From positions 1 to 37,588 of the IMG/VR virus record IMGVR_UViG_2563366827_000004: DNA of 37,588 nt; one strand, 5' to 3'. A model generated the notes under the pieces. It had not been told where the DNA came from. It ran no database searches and saw only the letters and a program-made list of their open reading frames with translations. Positions 1-18,626 of the stretch are shown one piece after another (the stretch's first letter is position 1; every line of letters starts with the position of its first letter). This DNA is from a virus (lineage: Duplodnaviria > Heunggongvirae > Uroviricota > Caudoviricetes). Position numbers and translations under genes: made by a program.

Positions 1-1167
1 TCAGGCCTTATGGTGGAAATAATCACTCAGGCGAGAAAACATGCTGCCTTCCCCAACAGATTCCAGGGTAACCAGCGGCCAGTGCGCCACCTGTTTATCA
101 CGGTCGTAAAGTTCAATTTCCCCTACCCGCTGATGGGCGCTAATTGGCGCGGTGAGTTCTTTACCATCAAGGGTATATTTGGCTTTGATATGTGGAATTT
201 CGGCTTTCGGTAGTACCATCCAGAACTCTTGTTCTGTTCCCAGGGCGATATTTTCTTTATCGCCATACCAGATGCGTTCCGTACCGACCTTTTTCCCACG
301 GTGCAAAATTTGCACCGTAGTAAAGTTTTGTTGCCCCCAACGCAGTAATTTTCTTGCCTCTTCCTCACGACCTTTTGCACTGTCAGCCCCCATTACCACT
401 GCAATGAGACGACGCTGCCCATCTACAGCCGAAGCAATGAGGTTAAAACCGGCACCAGAAGTATGACCCGTTTTCAGGCCGTCAACATTCATGGTTTTAT
501 CCCACAACAACCCGTTACGGTTTTGCTGGGTGATACCGTTCCAGGTGAGACTTTTCTCACTGTACATATGATAAAACTCGGGCTCGCCGTGGATGATAGC
601 ACGAGAAAGCACAGCTAAATCATAAGCCGAGCTATGCTGGCCAGGTGCATCCAGACCATGCACTGTTTCAAAATGCGTATCCTTGAGATGCAGCTTCTCG
701 GCATAGTTGTTCATCATTTCAACAAACTGCCGTTGCCCACCGGCAATATAGTCAGCCAGAGCAACACAAGCGTCATTTCCGGAATCCACAATTAAACCAC
801 GGCTTAAATCATGTACCGATACGCGATCGCCCTCTTTCAAAAACATCAGTGAAGAACCGACAAACACCGGATTATCTTTCGCCCACGCATCGCGCCCCAC
901 GGTGACAATATCGTCTGGCGTAATGCGATGACTATCGATAGCGCGATCCACGACATAACCCGTCATCAGCTTTGTCAGGCTGGCGGGATTGCGCTGTTGA
1001 TGCTCATTACCCGCGGTGAGGATCTGACCGGTGGTGTAATCCATCAGTACCCAGGACCCGGCATGAATCTGTGGAGGCTGAGGTGAAAAAGGAATGTTTT
1101 CCGCCGCAAAACCAGACGATAAGTTAAAAACGAACAAAGAAGCAGCAATAATAAGACGGCGTTTCAA
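1..1167 (-). CDS. dacD: D-alanyl-D-alanine carboxypeptidase DacD (PBP6b)
   Basis: ORF 1..1173 matches recalled E. coli DacD end to end (MLLKRRLIIAASLFVF...SRLSDYFHHKA). Probable TTG start at 1167, 7 nt after GAGGG, giving 388 aa. Confidence 0.9.
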   Translation of the reverse strand: MKRRLIIAASLFVFNLSSGFAAENIPFSPQPPQIHAGSWVLMDYTTGQILTAGNEHQQRNPASLTKLMTGYVVDRAIDSHRITPDDIVTVGRDAWAKDNPVFVGSSLMFLKEGDRVSVHDLSRGLIVDSGNDACVALADYIAGGQRQFVEMMNNYAEKLHLKDTHFETVHGLDAPGQHSSAYDLAVLSRAIIHGEPEFYHMYSEKSLTWNGITQQNRNGLLWDKTMNVDGLKTGHTSGAGFNLIASAVDGQRRLIAVVMGADSAKGREEEARKLLRWGQQNFTTVQILHRGKKVGTERIWYGDKENIALGTEQEFWMVLPKAEIPHIKAKYTLDGKELTAPISAHQRVGEIELYDRDKQVAHWPLVTLESVGEGSMFSRLSDYFHHKA

Positions 1168-1375
1168 CAGCAAACCCTCAGGAGTTTCAAATAGCTGTTC
1201 TTTTTACGGAAATACTTATGAACTGGCTGGAATAAAGTGCAAGAAAATGTGACTACTCTCTCATTTTTATCTGACATGATCTGTTGCCACTCGCTGTCAA
1301 ATTGTTGCGCTAAAGCTGATTAGCACGGTGATATTTGATACTCTGGCAGACAGCAGAAATAACGGATTTAACCTA

Positions 1376-1423
1376 ATGATGAATGACGGTAAGCAACAAT
1401 CTACCTTTTTGTTTCACGATTAC
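1376..1423 (+). pseudogene. sbcB: 5' fragment of exonuclease I gene sbcB, truncated by prophage insertion
   Basis: ATG ATG AAT GAC GGT AAG CAA CAA TCT ACC TTT TTG TTT CAC GAT TAC encodes MMNDGKQQSTFLFHDY, the recalled SbcB N-terminus. The frame then leaves SbcB and stops 4 codons later at 1436-1438. Confidence 0.6.
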
Positions 1424-1478
1424 GCGCAACACCCCTGAGAACCGCCATGAACAAGGGTTTCATGATTTGTGATTTTAG

Positions 1479-1502
1479 TTTGGTACGCAATTTGGTACAC
1501 AA
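1479..1502. repeat. Tandem 12-bp direct repeat TTTGGTAC(G/A)CAA x2, candidate integrase arm-type site
   Basis: tttggtacgcaa immediately followed by tttggtacacaa, about 55 bp inside the inferred prophage end. Confidence 0.35.
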
Positions 1503-1847
1503 CACAATTTTCACTTCAGCGGGTAGTCATCAAACTCACCATAACGAGCATCGTTAATGATGTATGTGATCACCACAAATATCACATCTGGACTAGTTCC
1601 GTCTTCATGCGCAGGTATCTGTTCACGCCTCCCTTTCTGCAAATCCTAAAGATGAGATTTTGGGGTTTTGGGATATCTTTTTATCCTCAGTTCTCTATCA
1701 ATTCTACAAAGCAGTAATGAACCATCACTATGTGATAGTGAGGCATCCGCTACATTAAGCGCAGAGAAATGATGCAGTGGTGGGCGGACTGGCTTGATGA
1801 AAAGGTGGAGTGATGGTTATTCTAAATAAAAATAATGCATTAATTTA

Positions 1848-1870
1848 GCCCTTACATTATCTGTAAGGGC
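1848..1870. terminator. Hairpin just downstream of the tailspike stop
   Basis: gcccttaca-ttatc-tgtaagggc, a 9-bp perfect stem. T-rich flanks are modest on both strands. Confidence 0.4.
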
Positions 1871-1883
1871 TTTGCCTTAAAAA

Positions 1884-3731
1884 TTAAAAAAACTCTTTTC
1901 CTGTTGTAAACATGCCTTCGGGAAGACGCGCACCGTTAACTGAAGAAAATATAGGACCATAATATTGCTTGTTATAGCTTTGTTGAAATGAAATATATCC
2001 ACCACCATATCCGTTATCTGACATATTTACTTGCGAAAAATAACAATTAATTGTTGACGCATCAATATCTCTAAACTGCTGCATGAATCCGCATTGGCCA
2101 ACAACAACATCACCATCATCTTCTTTTTTTGTTAAAATAGGAAGGTGAATCCAGTTAAAATTCCTTGCGCTCGTAGCCATATGTGTATACACGCGCTCGC
2201 AAATAATATCATCACCAGATGTTTTATTTATTGCATAATTTGTCACGTTTGCTCCATCGCCAAATATAGTTTCAGCAACATAGCTATATGTAGATGACGA
2301 AACTGTAAGCGTTGATGCTGTATGTAGTGTTACATGCCTTGATAAGAGCAATTTAGGAGCATAACCAGAATCAAGGTTAAAGGATGCATTTTCTGTCCTC
2401 AACCTTTGAAGAAAATCACTATGACCACCATGGTATGTACCGAAGAACTTTCCAGTTGATAATTCTTTTGCAGCAAACTCTGTTGCTCCATTCCCACCGA
2501 AGTAATATGAAGGCCCCCCATTCACAAAAGGAGTTATTGTTGCTATAAAATTGTCATAATCTAGTAATTCACAACATCCAAGGCTAAAAACGTTTAGCCC
2601 AACGAGATTTGCAGGTTGAAGCGTTGTCGTATCTGTATTTTCAACTTTAAGATACCAAGTTCCTCCAAGTCCATTTATTTCAATATCAATAGGAAGTGGT
2701 GGCTGACCACCTGGTAATATTTTTGTGTCAACGATCTTTTGCGTTGTCCAGTCAGTGTTGTTTCTGCTTATTGATATTGTTACTGACTTACTTGATGCAT
2801 TAGAGCATGCAAGTCTGACATGCGCTATGCTATTTGTTAACATATATGTTACATAAGCGTTTGTGGAAATTGAATAAACTTGAGGTGTGTTAAGGGTGAA
2901 ATCACCTTGTTCTGTTTCCGCGTGTATAGCGTCATCTGTTTTAGAAAAGCCATACAATGTACTTATTTGAGATTCAGTAAATGAAGATAGGGAGACGCCA
3001 GTGTCACTTTTTGTATGTGGTGATAATTTTGCGATAACTGCATCACTTACCATATATACACTTCCAGGCCTAAAAGGTGATGCCCCGCCATAGTTATTCG
3101 AGTCTGATGGTGAAACCTCATTTGTTACTCTATGAGAAATATATTTTCCTTTCCCATGACATCTTTTACTTATAATATAAAAGTCATTAGAATTTTCATC
3201 TTTGACTATTGCTTTTATGTGTGTTGTTATTGTAGGTGATGTTGGGGGGATGATTGATGTCACAAAGTTAACATCTATAGATTTTCGCACATTAATAAAT
3301 TCATCATCTATACTAGTAATTTTATCTTTTAACGTTCCATCTTCATATCCAATATTTTCAGTCCCATCAGGACCTGCGAGAGACTTTGATAGTTGATCCG
3401 GGTCATACTTCAGAACATTCGGAAAATAGAACTGCTGCGCACCATACGCATCATAAACAGCCATAGAGTGGCCTTGCACGGTTACAAACTTGGCAATCTG
3501 TCCGTTATATACCGGATATCCAGAAGCGTTAATGATGATTGGTTGCGAAACAGGAACGTGAGAACCGTCTTCATTTTCCACATAAACCTGAATCTGGTTT
3601 TCATGATTTACCGGGTCAGTGTCAATTTTACCGATATAAATTTTACCATTAGCTACGGCTTTAAAAGAACGAGCCATAGTGAAGAGTTGCGAAGGCATTC
3701 CTATAACCACATTTGGTGTTATATTAGTCAT
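1884..3731 (-). CDS. Tailspike protein with P22 gp9-like N-terminal head-binding domain and divergent receptor-binding body
   Basis: From the internal Met at 3731 the first ~110 aa (MTNITPNVV...RSFKAVANGKIYIGKIDTDPVN...VQGHSMAVYDA...VLKYDPDQ) closely match the recalled P22 tailspike N-terminus. GGA RBS upstream. The rest does not resemble P22. Confidence 0.85.
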   Translation of the reverse strand: MTNITPNVVIGMPSQLFTMARSFKAVANGKIYIGKIDTDPVNHENQIQVYVENEDGSHVPVSQPIIINASGYPVYNGQIAKFVTVQGHSMAVYDAYGAQQFYFPNVLKYDPDQLSKSLAGPDGTENIGYEDGTLKDKITSIDDEFINVRKSIDVNFVTSIIPPTSPTITTHIKAIVKDENSNDFYIISKRCHGKGKYISHRVTNEVSPSDSNNYGGASPFRPGSVYMVSDAVIAKLSPHTKSDTGVSLSSFTESQISTLYGFSKTDDAIHAETEQGDFTLNTPQVYSISTNAYVTYMLTNSIAHVRLACSNASSKSVTISISRNNTDWTTQKIVDTKILPGGQPPLPIDIEINGLGGTWYLKVENTDTTTLQPANLVGLNVFSLGCCELLDYDNFIATITPFVNGGPSYYFGGNGATEFAAKELSTGKFFGTYHGGHSDFLQRLRTENASFNLDSGYAPKLLLSRHVTLHTASTLTVSSSTYSYVAETIFGDGANVTNYAINKTSGDDIICERVYTHMATSARNFNWIHLPILTKKEDDGDVVVGQCGFMQQFRDIDASTINCYFSQVNMSDNGYGGGYISFQQSYNKQYYGPIFSSVNGARLPEGMFTTGKEFF

Positions 3732-3833
3732 GTGTGCAATCCTATTAGACTTGTTTGATAAAGAAGATAATGGAGTTAATGCTACAAATGACGCTATTGA
3801 TTTGAAAAATGATCTTCTATTCATATTAAACAC

Positions 3834-3862
3834 ACATTAATGCAGAAAATTTGCATTAATGT
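3834..3862. promoter_or_regulatory. Perfect 11-bp inverted repeat (acattaatgca-N7-tgcattaatgt) between ejection-protein gene and tailspike
   Basis: Seen directly in the 190-bp gap upstream of the tailspike start. Operator or RNA hairpin. Confidence 0.35.
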
Positions 3863-3922
3863 AAGCAAAAAGCGCAATCAACTCCATAGCAATTTAATTT
3901 TTAACTGTAATTTACATCTACA

Positions 3923-5920
3923 TTACCATGACAACGCATCAGACTTAGCCCCCTGCGTCATAGCGTTAATGGCCTTTTGCGCCTGCTGCATGGCTTTCTC
4001 GAACACTGTTGATCCGCGTGGGGTGTTTGCCATTCGGAGCATTGCATTTCTGAATGGCTCGCTCTCATAGGCGCGAGTAAGAAGTCCGTAGCTTACTGCT
4101 GCGCCAGTTGTTGCAGGGTTCATTGCCGTCCCATACCCGATAATGAACGGGATGGTTTGCTGGCCTGTTGGTGTTGTTACTGCCGCTTTTGCAGCCTGCT
4201 GCGTGGATTGCAGGTAGTTTTTTAATCCTTTCAGATAAGCAGCGTCCTGCCCCTTAAATGTGATGCCAGTCTGGTTTTGCAGGATGTTAAGCTGCCGAAG
4301 GAACTGGTCAGGGGATCCGCCAGATTTCTCCATCGCCTTTCCAATGATGCCATTGCGCATTTGCGCCCTGCCAACACGACCAACTGAGTTATACAGCGTC
4401 TTAATTTCCGATTTGTTCTTGCTGAATAGCATGTTGTTGACAACTTCCGGCGTCAGGTCTCCTTTCATGAGAACATTCTTCAGCCTGGTATTCTTTAGTT
4501 TCGCCGCTTCGTCAGCGTAGACGGCATTGGCCTGCTGATATTTACGGAGAGTATCGTTGCCAAGATTCTGACCAATGGCACCATTGATATCGTCGGTCAT
4601 CGCCTTGTAAACACGTTGAATGGCGGCATCGGAACGGTTTGGTAACACTGGTCGCTCCCCCTTCACGTCCATTCTGAACTGGCTGCGCAGATCGCTTAAT
4701 TGCTTCAAATCCAGATTAACCGGACCATCAGGGCCAGCATTGCGAACAAGCTCATCACGATATGACTGAAGTTTTGAAATTGTCTCGTTATCAGCTACCT
4801 TACCAAGCTTCTGCAGATTAGATATTTCTGTATCAATCTGCTGAATTGCTCGCGCAGGCTGAATGTTTACTCCAGCCATAGCATTCTGAACCTGCTCCAG
4901 TCGATTACCGGCGGCACGACGAATTCCTGATGTTTTCGCTTTAAGGCTGTCAATAACAACAGATGGATCATACTCACCGAATTTATCAGCAAATCTCTGC
5001 ACCAACTGACTTCTCGCTTCCTGTTGCGTTGCTCTCATTCCGCTTGTGCCAGCCAGGGGGATATTTTCTGCTGTAGTCTGCGCCATTTTCCCGACGCGGG
5101 AAGTAGGCTGTAACAGGTCTGTGGTGTGCAGAGGAACTCCTTCACGCTCTGCAAATCTGATAGCCTGCTGCGCTTCTGGCGCAATAGCACCACGAACGCC
5201 ACGATAAGCAGCACCTAATCCACGTCCGGCAGCGTTAATAGCACCGCCAGCCAACACACCAACGCCTAAATCGGTGGCGAGTGCTTCCGCATCATCTTTC
5301 GCACTATTTGCAGCAAGTGATCCAACTGCGTTTTCTGCGAGAAGTCGTGTTGCCCCATGAGCAATTCGACCAGCAAGTGTTGGTGCCTGTGTTGCCGCCC
5401 TCTCAACGCCAGCAGGAGTGAGGTAAGGCAATGCTTCAGCAAATACCCTTCCCTCTGTCGTTTGTGGCGTCAGCGCGCCTTGCTGAAGGCCAAAGTCCTG
5501 CTCTAATCCCTGCGTTGTTACTCGTGGTGCTGGTTGATATGTACCATCGCCAATGCCGAGTTTACCGCCAGCCCAAGCCGCCGCGCTTGTTACAGCATCG
5601 GCAACTGATGCAGGTATGTTTGCCACGTTCACGCCAGCCTGCACCAGTCCGCGACCAGTCTCTTTCACTGCTTCACCAAGATCAGGCATAAATCCACTTT
5701 GCTGTGGTTGTTGCTGTGCTACTGGTTGCTGTGTCTCCACTGGCTGCACAGATGGCAATGGATAGGCTGCATAGAAAGCTTGCTTAGCCTGCTCTGCATT
5801 TTCTCCGGCTTGCGGGGCCACGACTTCATTGAAGTATTGCTCCTGAGCCTGCGCTTTTTGTTCTGGTGCTAACGCCTGATACTGTGGAGAGGCGATAACA
5901 TCTTTCCATGCTTTAGCCAT
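3923..5920 (-). CDS. DNA ejection (injection) protein, P22 gp16 position
   Basis: 665-aa ORF at the gp16 position of the conserved P22 order 7-20-16-tailspike; start overlaps upstream stop. Assigned by synteny and size only. Confidence 0.6.
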   Translation of the reverse strand: MAKAWKDVIASPQYQALAPEQKAQAQEQYFNEVVAPQAGENAEQAKQAFYAAYPLPSVQPVETQQPVAQQQPQQSGFMPDLGEAVKETGRGLVQAGVNVANIPASVADAVTSAAAWAGGKLGIGDGTYQPAPRVTTQGLEQDFGLQQGALTPQTTEGRVFAEALPYLTPAGVERAATQAPTLAGRIAHGATRLLAENAVGSLAANSAKDDAEALATDLGVGVLAGGAINAAGRGLGAAYRGVRGAIAPEAQQAIRFAEREGVPLHTTDLLQPTSRVGKMAQTTAENIPLAGTSGMRATQQEARSQLVQRFADKFGEYDPSVVIDSLKAKTSGIRRAAGNRLEQVQNAMAGVNIQPARAIQQIDTEISNLQKLGKVADNETISKLQSYRDELVRNAGPDGPVNLDLKQLSDLRSQFRMDVKGERPVLPNRSDAAIQRVYKAMTDDINGAIGQNLGNDTLRKYQQANAVYADEAAKLKNTRLKNVLMKGDLTPEVVNNMLFSKNKSEIKTLYNSVGRVGRAQMRNGIIGKAMEKSGGSPDQFLRQLNILQNQTGITFKGQDAAYLKGLKNYLQSTQQAAKAAVTTPTGQQTIPFIIGYGTAMNPATTGAAVSYGLLTRAYESEPFRNAMLRMANTPRGSTVFEKAMQQAQKAINAMTQGAKSDALSW

Positions 5921-18083: not shown

Positions 18084-18626
18084 TTAATTAGTGAGTCCGG
18101 GGATTACGGTTTGCCCGTGCTGTTCAAGGCGTTCAATTCTCGCCAGTAGCTGAGGCTTCTTAATTTTTCCCCAGCGATTGAGCAGGCGACCTGACATGCT
18201 GGCAACATCCTTCTCTTTCATGTACTCCAGCATTACGGCATTTCTCTCTTCTTCAAATTGACGATGACCAACCTGAAGCATGGCGTACATCCAGTTAAAT
18301 GCGTTGATGTAAGCAATTTTGATACGCATTGCTTCTTTTTTGGTGTAGGACATAACCAAAAGCATCAACCCATCCTTGCGGAGACGGTAGAATTTTTGCG
18401 GCTTACCATTCTGTAACTCATTGTTTTTATAGCAAAGCTCAAAGTTGAGCTTTGTATCAAACTCAGGAGGGCAAGCTTCTATGGTTCGCTCAATGTCACG
18501 GACTACGTTCTTCGGCAGCTTTCCAAATGCTTTTGCCACCATAAAAGAATCTGTAACCGGATCGTTGTTTGCTACAAAAATTAGGTCTCTGAAATCTATA
18601 TCGTTAACAACGGTTGGGTAGTTCAT
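18084..18626 (-). CDS. rha: Rha-family phage regulatory protein
   Basis: 180 aa; N-terminal block DFRDLIFVANNDPVTDSFMVAKAFGKLPKNVVRDIE resembles the Rha signature. Confidence 0.65.
   Translation of the reverse strand: MNYPTVVNDIDFRDLIFVANNDPVTDSFMVAKAFGKLPKNVVRDIERTIEACPPEFDTKLNFELCYKNNELQNGKPQKFYRLRKDGLMLLVMSYTKKEAMRIKIAYINAFNWMYAMLQVGHRQFEEERNAVMLEYMKEKDVASMSGRLLNRWGKIKKPQLLARIERLEQHGQTVIPGLTN

Follow-up and report, generated by a model that had tools for sequence, protein, structure and literature searches.

The window, as the stretch of DNA analysed here is called throughout, covers positions 1 to 37,588 of the IMG/VR virus record IMGVR_UViG_2563366827_000004 (Duplodnaviria; Heunggongvirae; Uroviricota; Caudoviricetes), 37,588 nucleotides in all. 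At 1884–3833 its minus strand carries an open reading frame (ORF) that encodes 649 amino acids if read from GTG 3833 and 615 if read from ATG 3731. The shorter frame, 1884–3731, is the tailspike gene of an apparently complete P22/Sf6-like prophage adjoining the host gene dacD. It is almost certainly a P22-type tailspike gene with a swapped body, and at the level of a mosaic tailspike alone the gene is ordinary. It is preceded in frame by a short extension, which is conserved as coding sequence and has the look of a signal peptide for twin-arginine translocation (Tat). The reading that we somewhat favour, from the sequence comparisons below, is of one gene with two starts, in which the virion tailspike would begin at ATG 3731, a Tat-exported form would begin at ATG 3824, and both would share the swapped body.

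The tailspike gene and its head-binding domain

The N-terminal part of the protein is readily identified. Pfam family PF09008 (Head_binding) matches ORF residues 35–147, which are residues 1–113 when counted from Met 3731 (the numbering used below), with E=9e-65 and with the profile complete from position 1 to 113. A sequence search of the PDB found matches only within residues 1–119, namely Sf6 gp14 (7sg7, E=6e-64) and the P22 tailspike (2vky/2xc1/1lkt); aligned over 113 residues, the head-binding domain is 92% identical to that of Sf6, and over 112 residues it is 71% identical to that of P22. All 27 PHROG matches to the tailspike are likewise confined to the N-terminal part. By analogy with P22 and Sf6, this domain would dock the tailspike trimer onto the gp4/gp10 tail hub. 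Two database proteins (P0001 and P0002) are 98–100% identical to the tailspike; full-length identity to a characterised tailspike was looked for and none was found, the relatives being uncharacterised.

The gene occupies the distal end of a P22-type virion module, downstream of genes for portal, scaffold, coat, gp4, gp10, the gp26 needle, gp14, gp7, gp20 and gp16. Each of the ten virion-module ORFs upstream of the tailspike has a PHROG match, three of them to ejection proteins, and the gp16-type ejection gene (3923–5920) ends 191 nt 5' of ATG 3731. Terminase, lysis, Q, replication and repressor genes lie beyond the module. Neither immI nor gtr/oac is found among the genes flanking the tailspike in the window, and no O-antigen genes are present anywhere in it.

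A body exchanged at the canonical junction

The extent of the exchanged segment is seen from a survey of 5,426 complete Escherichia coli genomes in which window positions 1700–4000 served as the query. Some part of this query was matched in 2,048 genomes, and the whole tailspike gene in only seven. The head-binding part with its upstream region (3394–4000) matched far more genomes than the whole gene did, and homology to other tailspike genes breaks at about 3394, close to residue 113. On the other side, window positions 1–1814 are contiguous in 572 E. coli genomes that carry other tailspikes. The breakpoints at about 3394 and at 1814 therefore delimit a swapped cassette of roughly 1815–3393, whose GC content of 34–39% compares with 47–55% in the neighbouring virion genes. 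The body was thus acquired by exchange at the canonical junction near residue 113, a classical case of tailspike module exchange. A preliminary description of the locus, made from the sequence alone, had recognised a P22-type head-binding domain in the first ~110 residues, the loss of similarity after it, a swap of the receptor-binding domain and the lack of immI and gtr genes beside the tailspike, and all of these are borne out by the Pfam match, the end of the PDB matches at residue 119, the breakpoints with their drop in GC content, and flanks that hold a gp16-type gene upstream and nothing credible as far as dacD. The features of the gene and its flanks are collected in Table 1.

Table 1. 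Positions of the tailspike gene, its domains and its flanking elements in the window, with the three types of upstream extension
Feature	Position	Strand	Sequence	Basis or remark
Short (virion) tailspike coding sequence, 615 aa plus stop	1884..3731	-		ORF list and sequence; same 615-aa coding sequence annotated by PGAP in LR-45 and TW11681
P22/Sf6-type head-binding domain, residues 1-115	3387..3731	-		PF09008, PDB matches, identity to Sf6 and P22
Variable linker/neck, residues 116-155	3267..3386	-		Least conserved, partly gapped in the family alignment
Predicted 22-residue neck alpha-helix, residues 134-155	3267-3332	-		AlphaFold2, H19-40 of the body model, low to moderate pLDDT
Beta-sandwich region (predicted), residues 156-393, including a CBM6/CBM35-like jelly roll	2553..3266	-		AlphaFold2 pLDDT mostly >90; Foldseek
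C-terminal supersandwich domain (predicted), residues 394-615, galactose-mutarotase-like	1887..2552	-		Most conserved; putative catalytic or sugar-binding site
Signature motif, residues 415-438, with invariant E418, H434 and H437	2418..2489	-	GATEFAAKELSTGKFFGTYHGGHS	Invariant columns, alignments A1 and A3
Receptor-binding cassette acquired by horizontal exchange (body with 70 nt of 3' flank)	1815..3393	-		Homology breakpoints in E. coli genomes, GC drop
GC-rich hairpin directly 3' of the tailspike stop, likely bidirectional terminator	1847..1871	.		dG -16.7 kcal/mol, z -3.5
In-frame 31-codon extension, predicted Tat-type signal peptide	3732..3824	-	MNRRSFFKSIASFVALTPLSSLSNKSNRIAH	Three diverged types, open frame, synonymous bias
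Shine-Dalgarno sequence for the inner ATG 3731, inside the extension coding sequence	3740..3743	-	AGGA	Conserved across types
-35-like hexamer 5' of the long-form start (invariant GTTGAT at 3877-3882)	3876..3881	-	TTGATT	Alignment of types A, B and C
Perfect inverted repeat with 12-bp arms	3833..3863	-	ACATTAATGCA-N7-TGCATTAATGT	dG -14.1 kcal/mol, z -2.1; between the -35-like box and the outer ATG
Extension type A			MNRRSFFKSIASFVALTPLSSLSNKSNRIAH	Found in the window
Extension type B			M/V-[ND]RRLFFKT[IL]ASLS[AT]VIPF[SY]SISK[FS]SNRMTN	JEP4 and others
Extension type C			MKRRTLLKSLLGLTSLLPVKFAASQNLQGKSI	IMG/VR loci, with further variants

The downstream end of the cassette has a character of its own. 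Window positions 1756–1813 match the final 58 nt of intS from prophages at argW (99.9% overall identity to the genome LR-45), and the window contains no integrase body upstream of this fragment. In LR-45 a hairpin equivalent to that at the end of the window's tailspike gene sits between the convergent intS and tailspike genes. The intS fragment together with the hairpin forms a conserved downstream cassette boundary that is common to prophages at different integration sites.

A rare family of receptor-binding modules

Beyond about residue 115 the body has no match in Pfam, PHROG or the PDB when searched as a single sequence. A profile search of PDB sequences with the body family matched only the N-terminal adaptor domains of its homologues, and a Pfam search of 66 distant body relatives returned no family for the body, only N-terminal adaptors and a few matches of the CBM/CE2_N type. 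Relatives are nonetheless found when large collections are searched. Thirty-four body homologues of 35–100% identity were recovered from a collection of 5.8 billion sequences, from E. coli, Enterobacter, Citrobacter, Siccibacter, Providencia and Aeromonas, and an exhaustive profile search of 1.84 billion proteins gave 210 cluster representatives at E<=1e-3, 33 of them at E<=1e-30. Among these 210 representatives, which are 450–900 aa long, the body is almost always C-terminal, and the N-termini fused to body homologues are PF09008, PF18668 (Tail_spike_N), PF12571 or of no recognised kind. As the N-termini of the relatives differ in this way, the body moves as a receptor-binding module among phage types; the family of phage receptor-binding modules to which it belongs is rare and unannotated.

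Some of the relatives come from phages of other hosts, including proteins of the Aeromonas phages PhAER-3/4, annotated as "hypothetical protein", and of the Vibrio phage vB_VpM-PP270, annotated as "tail spike protein". These uncharacterised phage and prophage homologues resemble the 460-residue body from end to end, with 26–60% identity and with the invariant residues shared; they differ in their N-terminal adaptors (PF18668, PF12571 or none recognised), and so belong to other phage morphotypes. Conservation within the family peaks in the C-terminal domain, where the alignments show E418, H434, H437, D492, H517, D539 and Q552 to be invariant. The signature motif GATEFAAKELSTGKFFGTYHGGHS is followed by YTHM and then by YNKQYYG. 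Even the most distant relatives keep its HGG core almost unchanged, and their consensus reads GSYHGGE.

Predicted fold and possible activity of the body

The AlphaFold2 (AF2) model of the body (predicted local distance difference test, pLDDT, 88.9; predicted template modelling score, pTM, 0.86) is all-beta, with strands of up to 15 residues; in it a neck helix leads into sandwich domains, and these into a large sheet domain at the C-terminus. Within the sandwich region, Foldseek matched a domain of ~130 residues to carbohydrate-binding modules (CBM) of the families CBM6, CBM35 and CBM32 with a probability of 1.0 and a template modelling (TM) score to the target of 0.5–0.6, and two distant members of the family match the Pfam CE2_N beta-sandwich. 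The C-terminal domain is predicted to have the supersandwich fold that is typical of the superfamily of glycoside hydrolase (GH) family GH174 and the galactose-mutarotase-like proteins. A search of viral structures in BFVD gave weak partial matches only, with a best TM score of 0.39, and no characterised viral protein of the same architecture. The preliminary description had anticipated a depolymerase with a beta-helix body; this expectation fails, since the model is all-beta sandwich and supersandwich and no beta-helix protein was among the fold matches. On the strength of the model the body very probably has a fold other than the beta-helix.

The likeness to known enzymes is one of fold. GH174 is a glycoside hydrolase family of endo-glycanases with an unusual fold dominated by beta-sheets (PMC12534559), in which the catalytic residues are D119/E120/E218 (PMC11943901). 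Mutarotases use a His/His/Asp/Glu set instead. The GH174 endo-1,3-fucanases (PDB 9k1g, 8jd7), the aldose 1-epimerases and the rhamnogalacturonan lyases of polysaccharide lyase (PL) families PL4/PL26 all differ from the body in sequence, in substrate (sulfated fucans, pectin) and in the organisms that carry them. Membership of the GH174/galactose-mutarotase superfamily at the level of sequence was sought through Pfam on the body and its 66 relatives, through the PDB profile search and through hhalign against E. coli GalM, and was not found. Homology to aldose 1-epimerase in particular was rejected, as hhalign of the family profile against GalM gave a probability of 0.3%, and a likeness of fold alone is claimed.

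Taken as part of a tailspike, the body would bind a surface polysaccharide of the host, which the preliminary description supposed to be the host's own O-antigen or capsule, and would probably cleave or modify it, with a chemistry that may resemble that of beta-sandwich glycanases or lyases, GH174 and PL4/PL26 being examples. The balance tips slightly toward an enzymatic body. The alternative that survives best is a purely adhesive receptor-binding module, in which a lectin-like sugar pocket, or a role in the structure, would account for the conserved polar residues. Mutarotase-like domains are indeed non-catalytic accessory or sugar-binding parts of many glycosidases, with GH2, GH38 and GH31 among the fold matches; CBM-like domains are present in the body model, and no sequence link joins the body to any CAZy family. 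Yet the set of E, H, H, D, H, D and Q is invariant from E. coli to the Aeromonas and Vibrio phage homologues at 26–37% identity, which fits a shared chemistry better than strain-specific binding, and the nearest folds include enzymes that use the fold catalytically (GH174, PL4, PL26 and the aldose epimerases). A body that only adheres is for these reasons somewhat unlikely.

An in-frame extension maintained by selection

Upstream of Met 3731 the frame remains open. The preliminary description had noted an extension of 34 residues from 3833 with an RRSFFK motif; the extension and its motif are present as described, but the likeliest start of the long form is the ATG at 3822–3824, while GTG 3833 is merely where a mechanical ORF call begins. 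An isolated phage that can be compared is JEP4, an infectious Lederbergvirus (PMC8425383). JEP4 matches the window's extension region at 74% nucleotide identity, and its tailspike coding sequence in GenBank starts at the equivalent Met (MNRR...). Among 80 IMG/VR loci with the N-terminal region, 21 carry an extension in addition to JEP4 (as does L028, later read as L108). The extensions fall into three diverged in-frame types, A, B and C, and at most of the other loci a stop lies directly before MTDITANV.

Several properties mark the extension as coding. The sense frame is the only one open in all seven extension variants examined. The closest pair of type C haplotypes, L025 and L107, differs at eight positions; read in the sense frame, and in no other, every one of these differences is synonymous (binomial p=1.5e-5; Fisher p=5.5e-6). 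Across pairs of type C haplotypes the ratio of nonsynonymous to synonymous polymorphism (pN/pS) is 0–0.58, mostly 0.14–0.33, and the variable sites among six haplotypes are distributed 10:2:15 over the three codon positions. Between types A and B the ratio is 0.2–0.34 (Fisher p=0.001) and the distribution 11:7:20; for comparison, pN/pS in the head-binding domain is 0.04–0.10. Differences in length are of whole codons (31 vs 32), and where the outer start has changed from ATG to GTG in some variants, a start codon has been kept. An antisense shadow ORF was considered as the source of the codon-periodic conservation and rejected, as it has stops in four of the seven variants and the eight differences are not synonymous in its frame.

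The extension is also independent of the body to which it is joined. The 22 extension-bearing genes are spread over 14 of 47 body clusters, and one and the same body is found with and without an extension, and with both type A and type C. Together, the open frame, the synonymous bias, the lengths, the retained start and the independence of the body argue that the extension is a translated sequence kept by selection. Purifying selection has preserved it as a coding sequence across the three diverged types, and with good confidence, from these comparisons, it is translated in this lineage. The preliminary description had judged it most likely not translated, a view with which the purifying selection on a conserved coding sequence and the twin-arginine motif shared by the three types do not agree.

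The upstream neighbours of the extension were observed as well. At four E. coli loci with type B (L184, L185, L186, L187) they vary and include an Arc-family gene, an antirepressor gene, IS1 and small hypothetical genes, so that the extension with its upstream box travels with the 5' end of the tailspike gene and not with the gene upstream. Types A and C directly follow a gp16-like gene.

Two in-frame start codons and their upstream sites

The inner start has a ribosome-binding site of its own. In all three extension types an AGGA/AAGG core lies 8–10 nt 5' of the inner ATG, despite the differing residues encoded there (SNRIAH, SNRMTN and LQGKSI), and in six type C haplotypes the 19 nt around this Shine-Dalgarno sequence are almost invariant, third codon positions included. 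That Met 3731 is a real start with its own ribosome-binding site, as the preliminary description proposed, is thereby upheld. The conserved inner Shine-Dalgarno sequence indicates selection for internal initiation, and internal initiation would be needed because the virion protein begins at the head-binding domain.

The region 5' of the outer start has candidate promoter elements. GTTGAT (3877–3882) is the sole invariant block in the aligned upstream regions of types A, B and C. Types B and C have promoter-like sites, TTGATC-17-TAAAAT and TTGATA-17-CATGAT (L007, 2449–2477; L025, 2941–2969), in which the invariant box supplies the -35 and 31 nt separate the -10-like hexamer from the outer ATG. 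The GTTGAT box suggests a dedicated promoter inside what is presumed to be a late operon. In the window a palindrome ends at GTG 3833 and overlaps the -10 position; it is missing from the type A variant L012. This palindrome is possibly an operator or a weak terminator that controls the long isoform.

Tat-signal character of the extension

The extension has, near its N-terminus, a match to the Tat consensus S/T-R-R-x-F-L-K. Type A, that of the window, has the twin-arginine motif as NRRSFFK, type B as NRRLFFK and type C as KRRTLLK. The motif does not vary inside any one type, and as RRx(F/L)(F/L)K it is retained across types while most other residues of the extension change. The remaining parts of a Tat signal, the hydrophobic h-region, the c-region that follows it and a cleavage site, can be recognised as well. 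The h-region is of modest hydrophobicity, contains Pro and is followed by a basic c-region. In the window it has 16 uncharged residues with a mean Kyte-Doolittle value of 1.04, the c-region has a charge of +2, and the whole resembles the signals of SufI, CueO and TorA. The uncharged stretch of type C is short, with 11 residues. Possible cleavage sites of the small-x-small kind occur in the window (SLS|N) and in type C (AAS/AAA|Q). Judged from this sequence character, the chances that the long form is exported by Tat are evenly balanced.

Weighing the evidence for a long form

A number of observations weigh against one gene with two starts, and these must be set beside the evidence above. No recognisable Shine-Dalgarno sequence precedes the outer ATG, a promoter scan of the window upstream of the outer ATG called no site, and the -10-like hexamer of type A, the window's own type, is poor; the suggestion of a promoter draws on types B and C and on the invariant GTTGAT. 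RefSeq/PGAP always annotates the inner start and never the long form. The Pfam TAT_signal model (PF10518) and the NCBIfam models gave no match at E<=10 to any type, in a test whose control showed low sensitivity, since TorA had no match, SufI reached 15.4 bits against a cut-off of 22.7, and only CueO passed. The strongest signal of selection comes from type C and not from the window's type A. The extension is rare, being found in ~66 of the 5,426 E. coli genomes, of which 18 carry type A, 44 type B and 4 type C, and it was found at none of 15 loci of other species, mainly Xenorhabdus, Yersinia and Citrobacter, in species-representative genomes searched with restrictive patterns. As to the body, the AF2 model is of a monomer, and the likeness to GH174, mutarotases and lyases alike is at the level of fold only, with 6–12% identity.

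Some of these points speak for an alternative in which Met 3731 is the sole start and the 615-aa protein the sole product. The extension would then be an untranslated leader, perhaps a relic of an ancestral gene for a Tat-exported tailspike-like protein, or else a regulatory region, and its conservation would reflect signals at the nucleotide level (promoter, operator and ribosome-binding site). The inner ATG has the conserved Shine-Dalgarno sequence and the Pfam profile begins exactly there; the missing Shine-Dalgarno sequence at the outer ATG, the uniform annotation of the inner start and the silence of the Tat models fit this account, and some of the conservation truly is at the nucleotide level, namely GTTGAT, the Shine-Dalgarno region and AGAAGA. 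What would not be expected of a non-coding leader is that eight of eight differences are synonymous, that pN/pS is 0–0.58 (mostly 0.14–0.34) with sites at 10:2:15 over the codon positions, that the frame is open in every variant of the three types with indels only in multiples of three, or that RRx(F/L)(F/L)K and an h-region are kept while most residues change. We therefore regard an untranslated leader as clearly unlikely.

Less probable still, indeed quite improbable, is that the extension is translated as something other than a Tat signal (a Sec-type or membrane-anchoring leader, or a propeptide or regulatory peptide with no role in export, for instance in the timing of assembly): the unmatched Tat profile hidden Markov models and the short uncharged stretch of type C would fit, but nothing in the three types is better conserved than the full RRxFFK/RRxLLK consensus, modest hydrophobicity with basic c-regions is typical of Tat and not of Sec signals, a pre-folded trimeric tailspike suits Tat, and the protein WceF, described below, has exactly this layout of signal plus head domain.

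A model with two products and its known counterparts

With one gene and two starts, initiation at the inner ATG 3731 would yield the short form of 615 aa that builds the virion spike. Initiation at the outer ATG 3824 would yield a minor long isoform with 31 additional residues, possibly from a promoter of its own with the TTGAT -35-like box. In folded form the long isoform would be carried by Tat to the periplasm or cell envelope, a route also proposed for WceF, and there would act on the cell's own surface glycan, with receptor destruction, superinfection exclusion or the trimming of chain length as the outcome. A long form acting at the envelope would fit the absence of separate conversion genes beside the tailspike.

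The closest known counterpart is WceF of Pantoea stewartii, in which a Tat signal of 28 residues precedes a P22-like head domain (residues 34–146), a neck and a glycan-hydrolysing body (PMC7949094). It is a trimer of ~200 kDa, and its loss lengthens the chains of the exopolysaccharide (EPS) stewartan (PMC7949094). The WceF structure 6tgf matches the head-binding domain of the present protein (E=1.2e-8), and the predicted long form has the order of WceF and AmsF, with a twin-arginine signal of ~30 residues, a P22-type head domain, a neck and a putative glycan-processing body. The two systems differ in that WceF is encoded by a chromosomal gene of an EPS cluster, has a beta-helix body and has no virion role, whereas the present gene lies in a prophage late operon, has an internal start for the virion form and has a body of a different predicted fold. 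A literature search for Tat signals on phage tailspikes and for mutarotase-like tailspikes, with incomplete coverage of the literature, found only the WceF paper.

Sf6 gp14 and P22 gp9 of the Lederbergvirus group (7sg7, 2xc1, 1lkt) share with the present gene the place after the ejection genes at the end of the virion module and the junction near residue 113. Their bodies are trimeric right-handed beta-helix endorhamnosidases, to which the present body has no detectable relation, and neither has an in-frame Tat-like extension; P22-like loci have a stop directly before MTDIT, and the upstream region of Sf6 is unrelated. CUS-3 likewise has a P22-type head-binding domain, ~89% identical, joined to an endosialidase body, and has annotated "boundary sequences" flanking its cassette. 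The endosialidase body is unrelated to the present one, with tblastn similarity ending at residue 123, and ant and mnt lie upstream of the CUS-3 tailspike. Endosialidase bodies of the CUS-3 and K1F type are not beta-helices, and CUS-3 is therefore a precedent for a non-beta-helix body on the present head-binding domain.

The fate of the gene in decayed prophages is also of interest. The tailspike gene and the 191-nt upstream region are intact (99.4–99.9% nucleotide identity) in remnants of argW prophages in LR-45 and six other genomes. The LR-45 remnant (L001, 4901–8576) otherwise consists of gene fragments, and that of TW11681 (L002, 3565–12596), an enterotoxigenic E. coli (ETEC) strain of serotype O19:H45 (PMC6630672), is cut up by copies of IS3; five further genomes share the 99.4% match of TW11681. 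The tailspike could have been retained in these decayed prophages by selection, which fits a function on the side of the host. More broadly, and only tentatively, a subset of P22-like phages may use one tailspike gene for both a virion form and an exported form that trims or destroys the receptor glycan of its own cell, maybe expressed in lysogens from a separate promoter and, as a conversion function built into the gene, replacing gtr/oac. In that event such genes would be intermediates on the way to enzymes of the WceF/AmsF type, and the intact tailspikes of decayed ETEC prophages would represent domestication in progress.

Implications

Tailspikes are the textbook case of modular determinants of host range, and biotechnology and phage therapy draw on them as a main source of depolymerases. 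What is new in the present gene is its body of an uncharacterised family, very probably not a beta-helix, and a conserved Tat-type alternative N-terminus that annotation ignores. The body family, unannotated and found in phages of enterobacteria, Aeromonas and Vibrio, combines a predicted CBM-like sandwich and mutarotase-like supersandwich with an invariant cluster of His, Glu and Asp. It stands outside the beta-helix, beta-propeller and triple-helix folds commonly expected of phage depolymerases, and predictors built on those folds could miss it. If the two-start model is true, a Tat-targeted product would give temperate phages a new means of altering the host surface from within, through superinfection exclusion or the destruction of receptors, with no need of separate conversion genes; the origin of bacterial Tat-exported tailspike-like enzymes such as WceF would be explained; and RefSeq annotation would be systematically missing a functional start in extension-bearing tailspike genes.

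Neighbouring genes and other observations

Downstream of the tailspike gene, no credible coding content lies between its stop and dacD, the host gene for PBP6b, which occupies 1–1173 and is truncated by the left end of the window. The stretch of ~580 nt from dacD to the intS fragment (1174–1755) is common to the 572 E. coli genomes with prophages at the dacD site, and the attachment junction has to lie within it. The whole window is free of tRNA genes. To see whether tailspike genes with an extension lack O-antigen-modification genes beside them, their neighbours at the surveyed loci were classed as IntS in four cases and unknown in three, and those of genes with no extension as IntS in 16, Oac in two and unknown in 18, the flanks being short and most downstream ORFs unclassifiable. 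A prophage at the dacD site of E. coli 2014C-4587 (L003, 7021–9963) has an acyltransferase of the O-antigen-modification type beside a different tailspike that bears no extension, and offers a single instance of the other layout, in which the conversion gene is distinct from the tailspike gene. Finally, between the lysis genes and the small terminase gene of the window lies a gene for a Rha-like regulator or antirepressor (18084–18626, minus strand; phrog_518, E=1.5e-81), which may replace the antirepressor role of the absent immI region.

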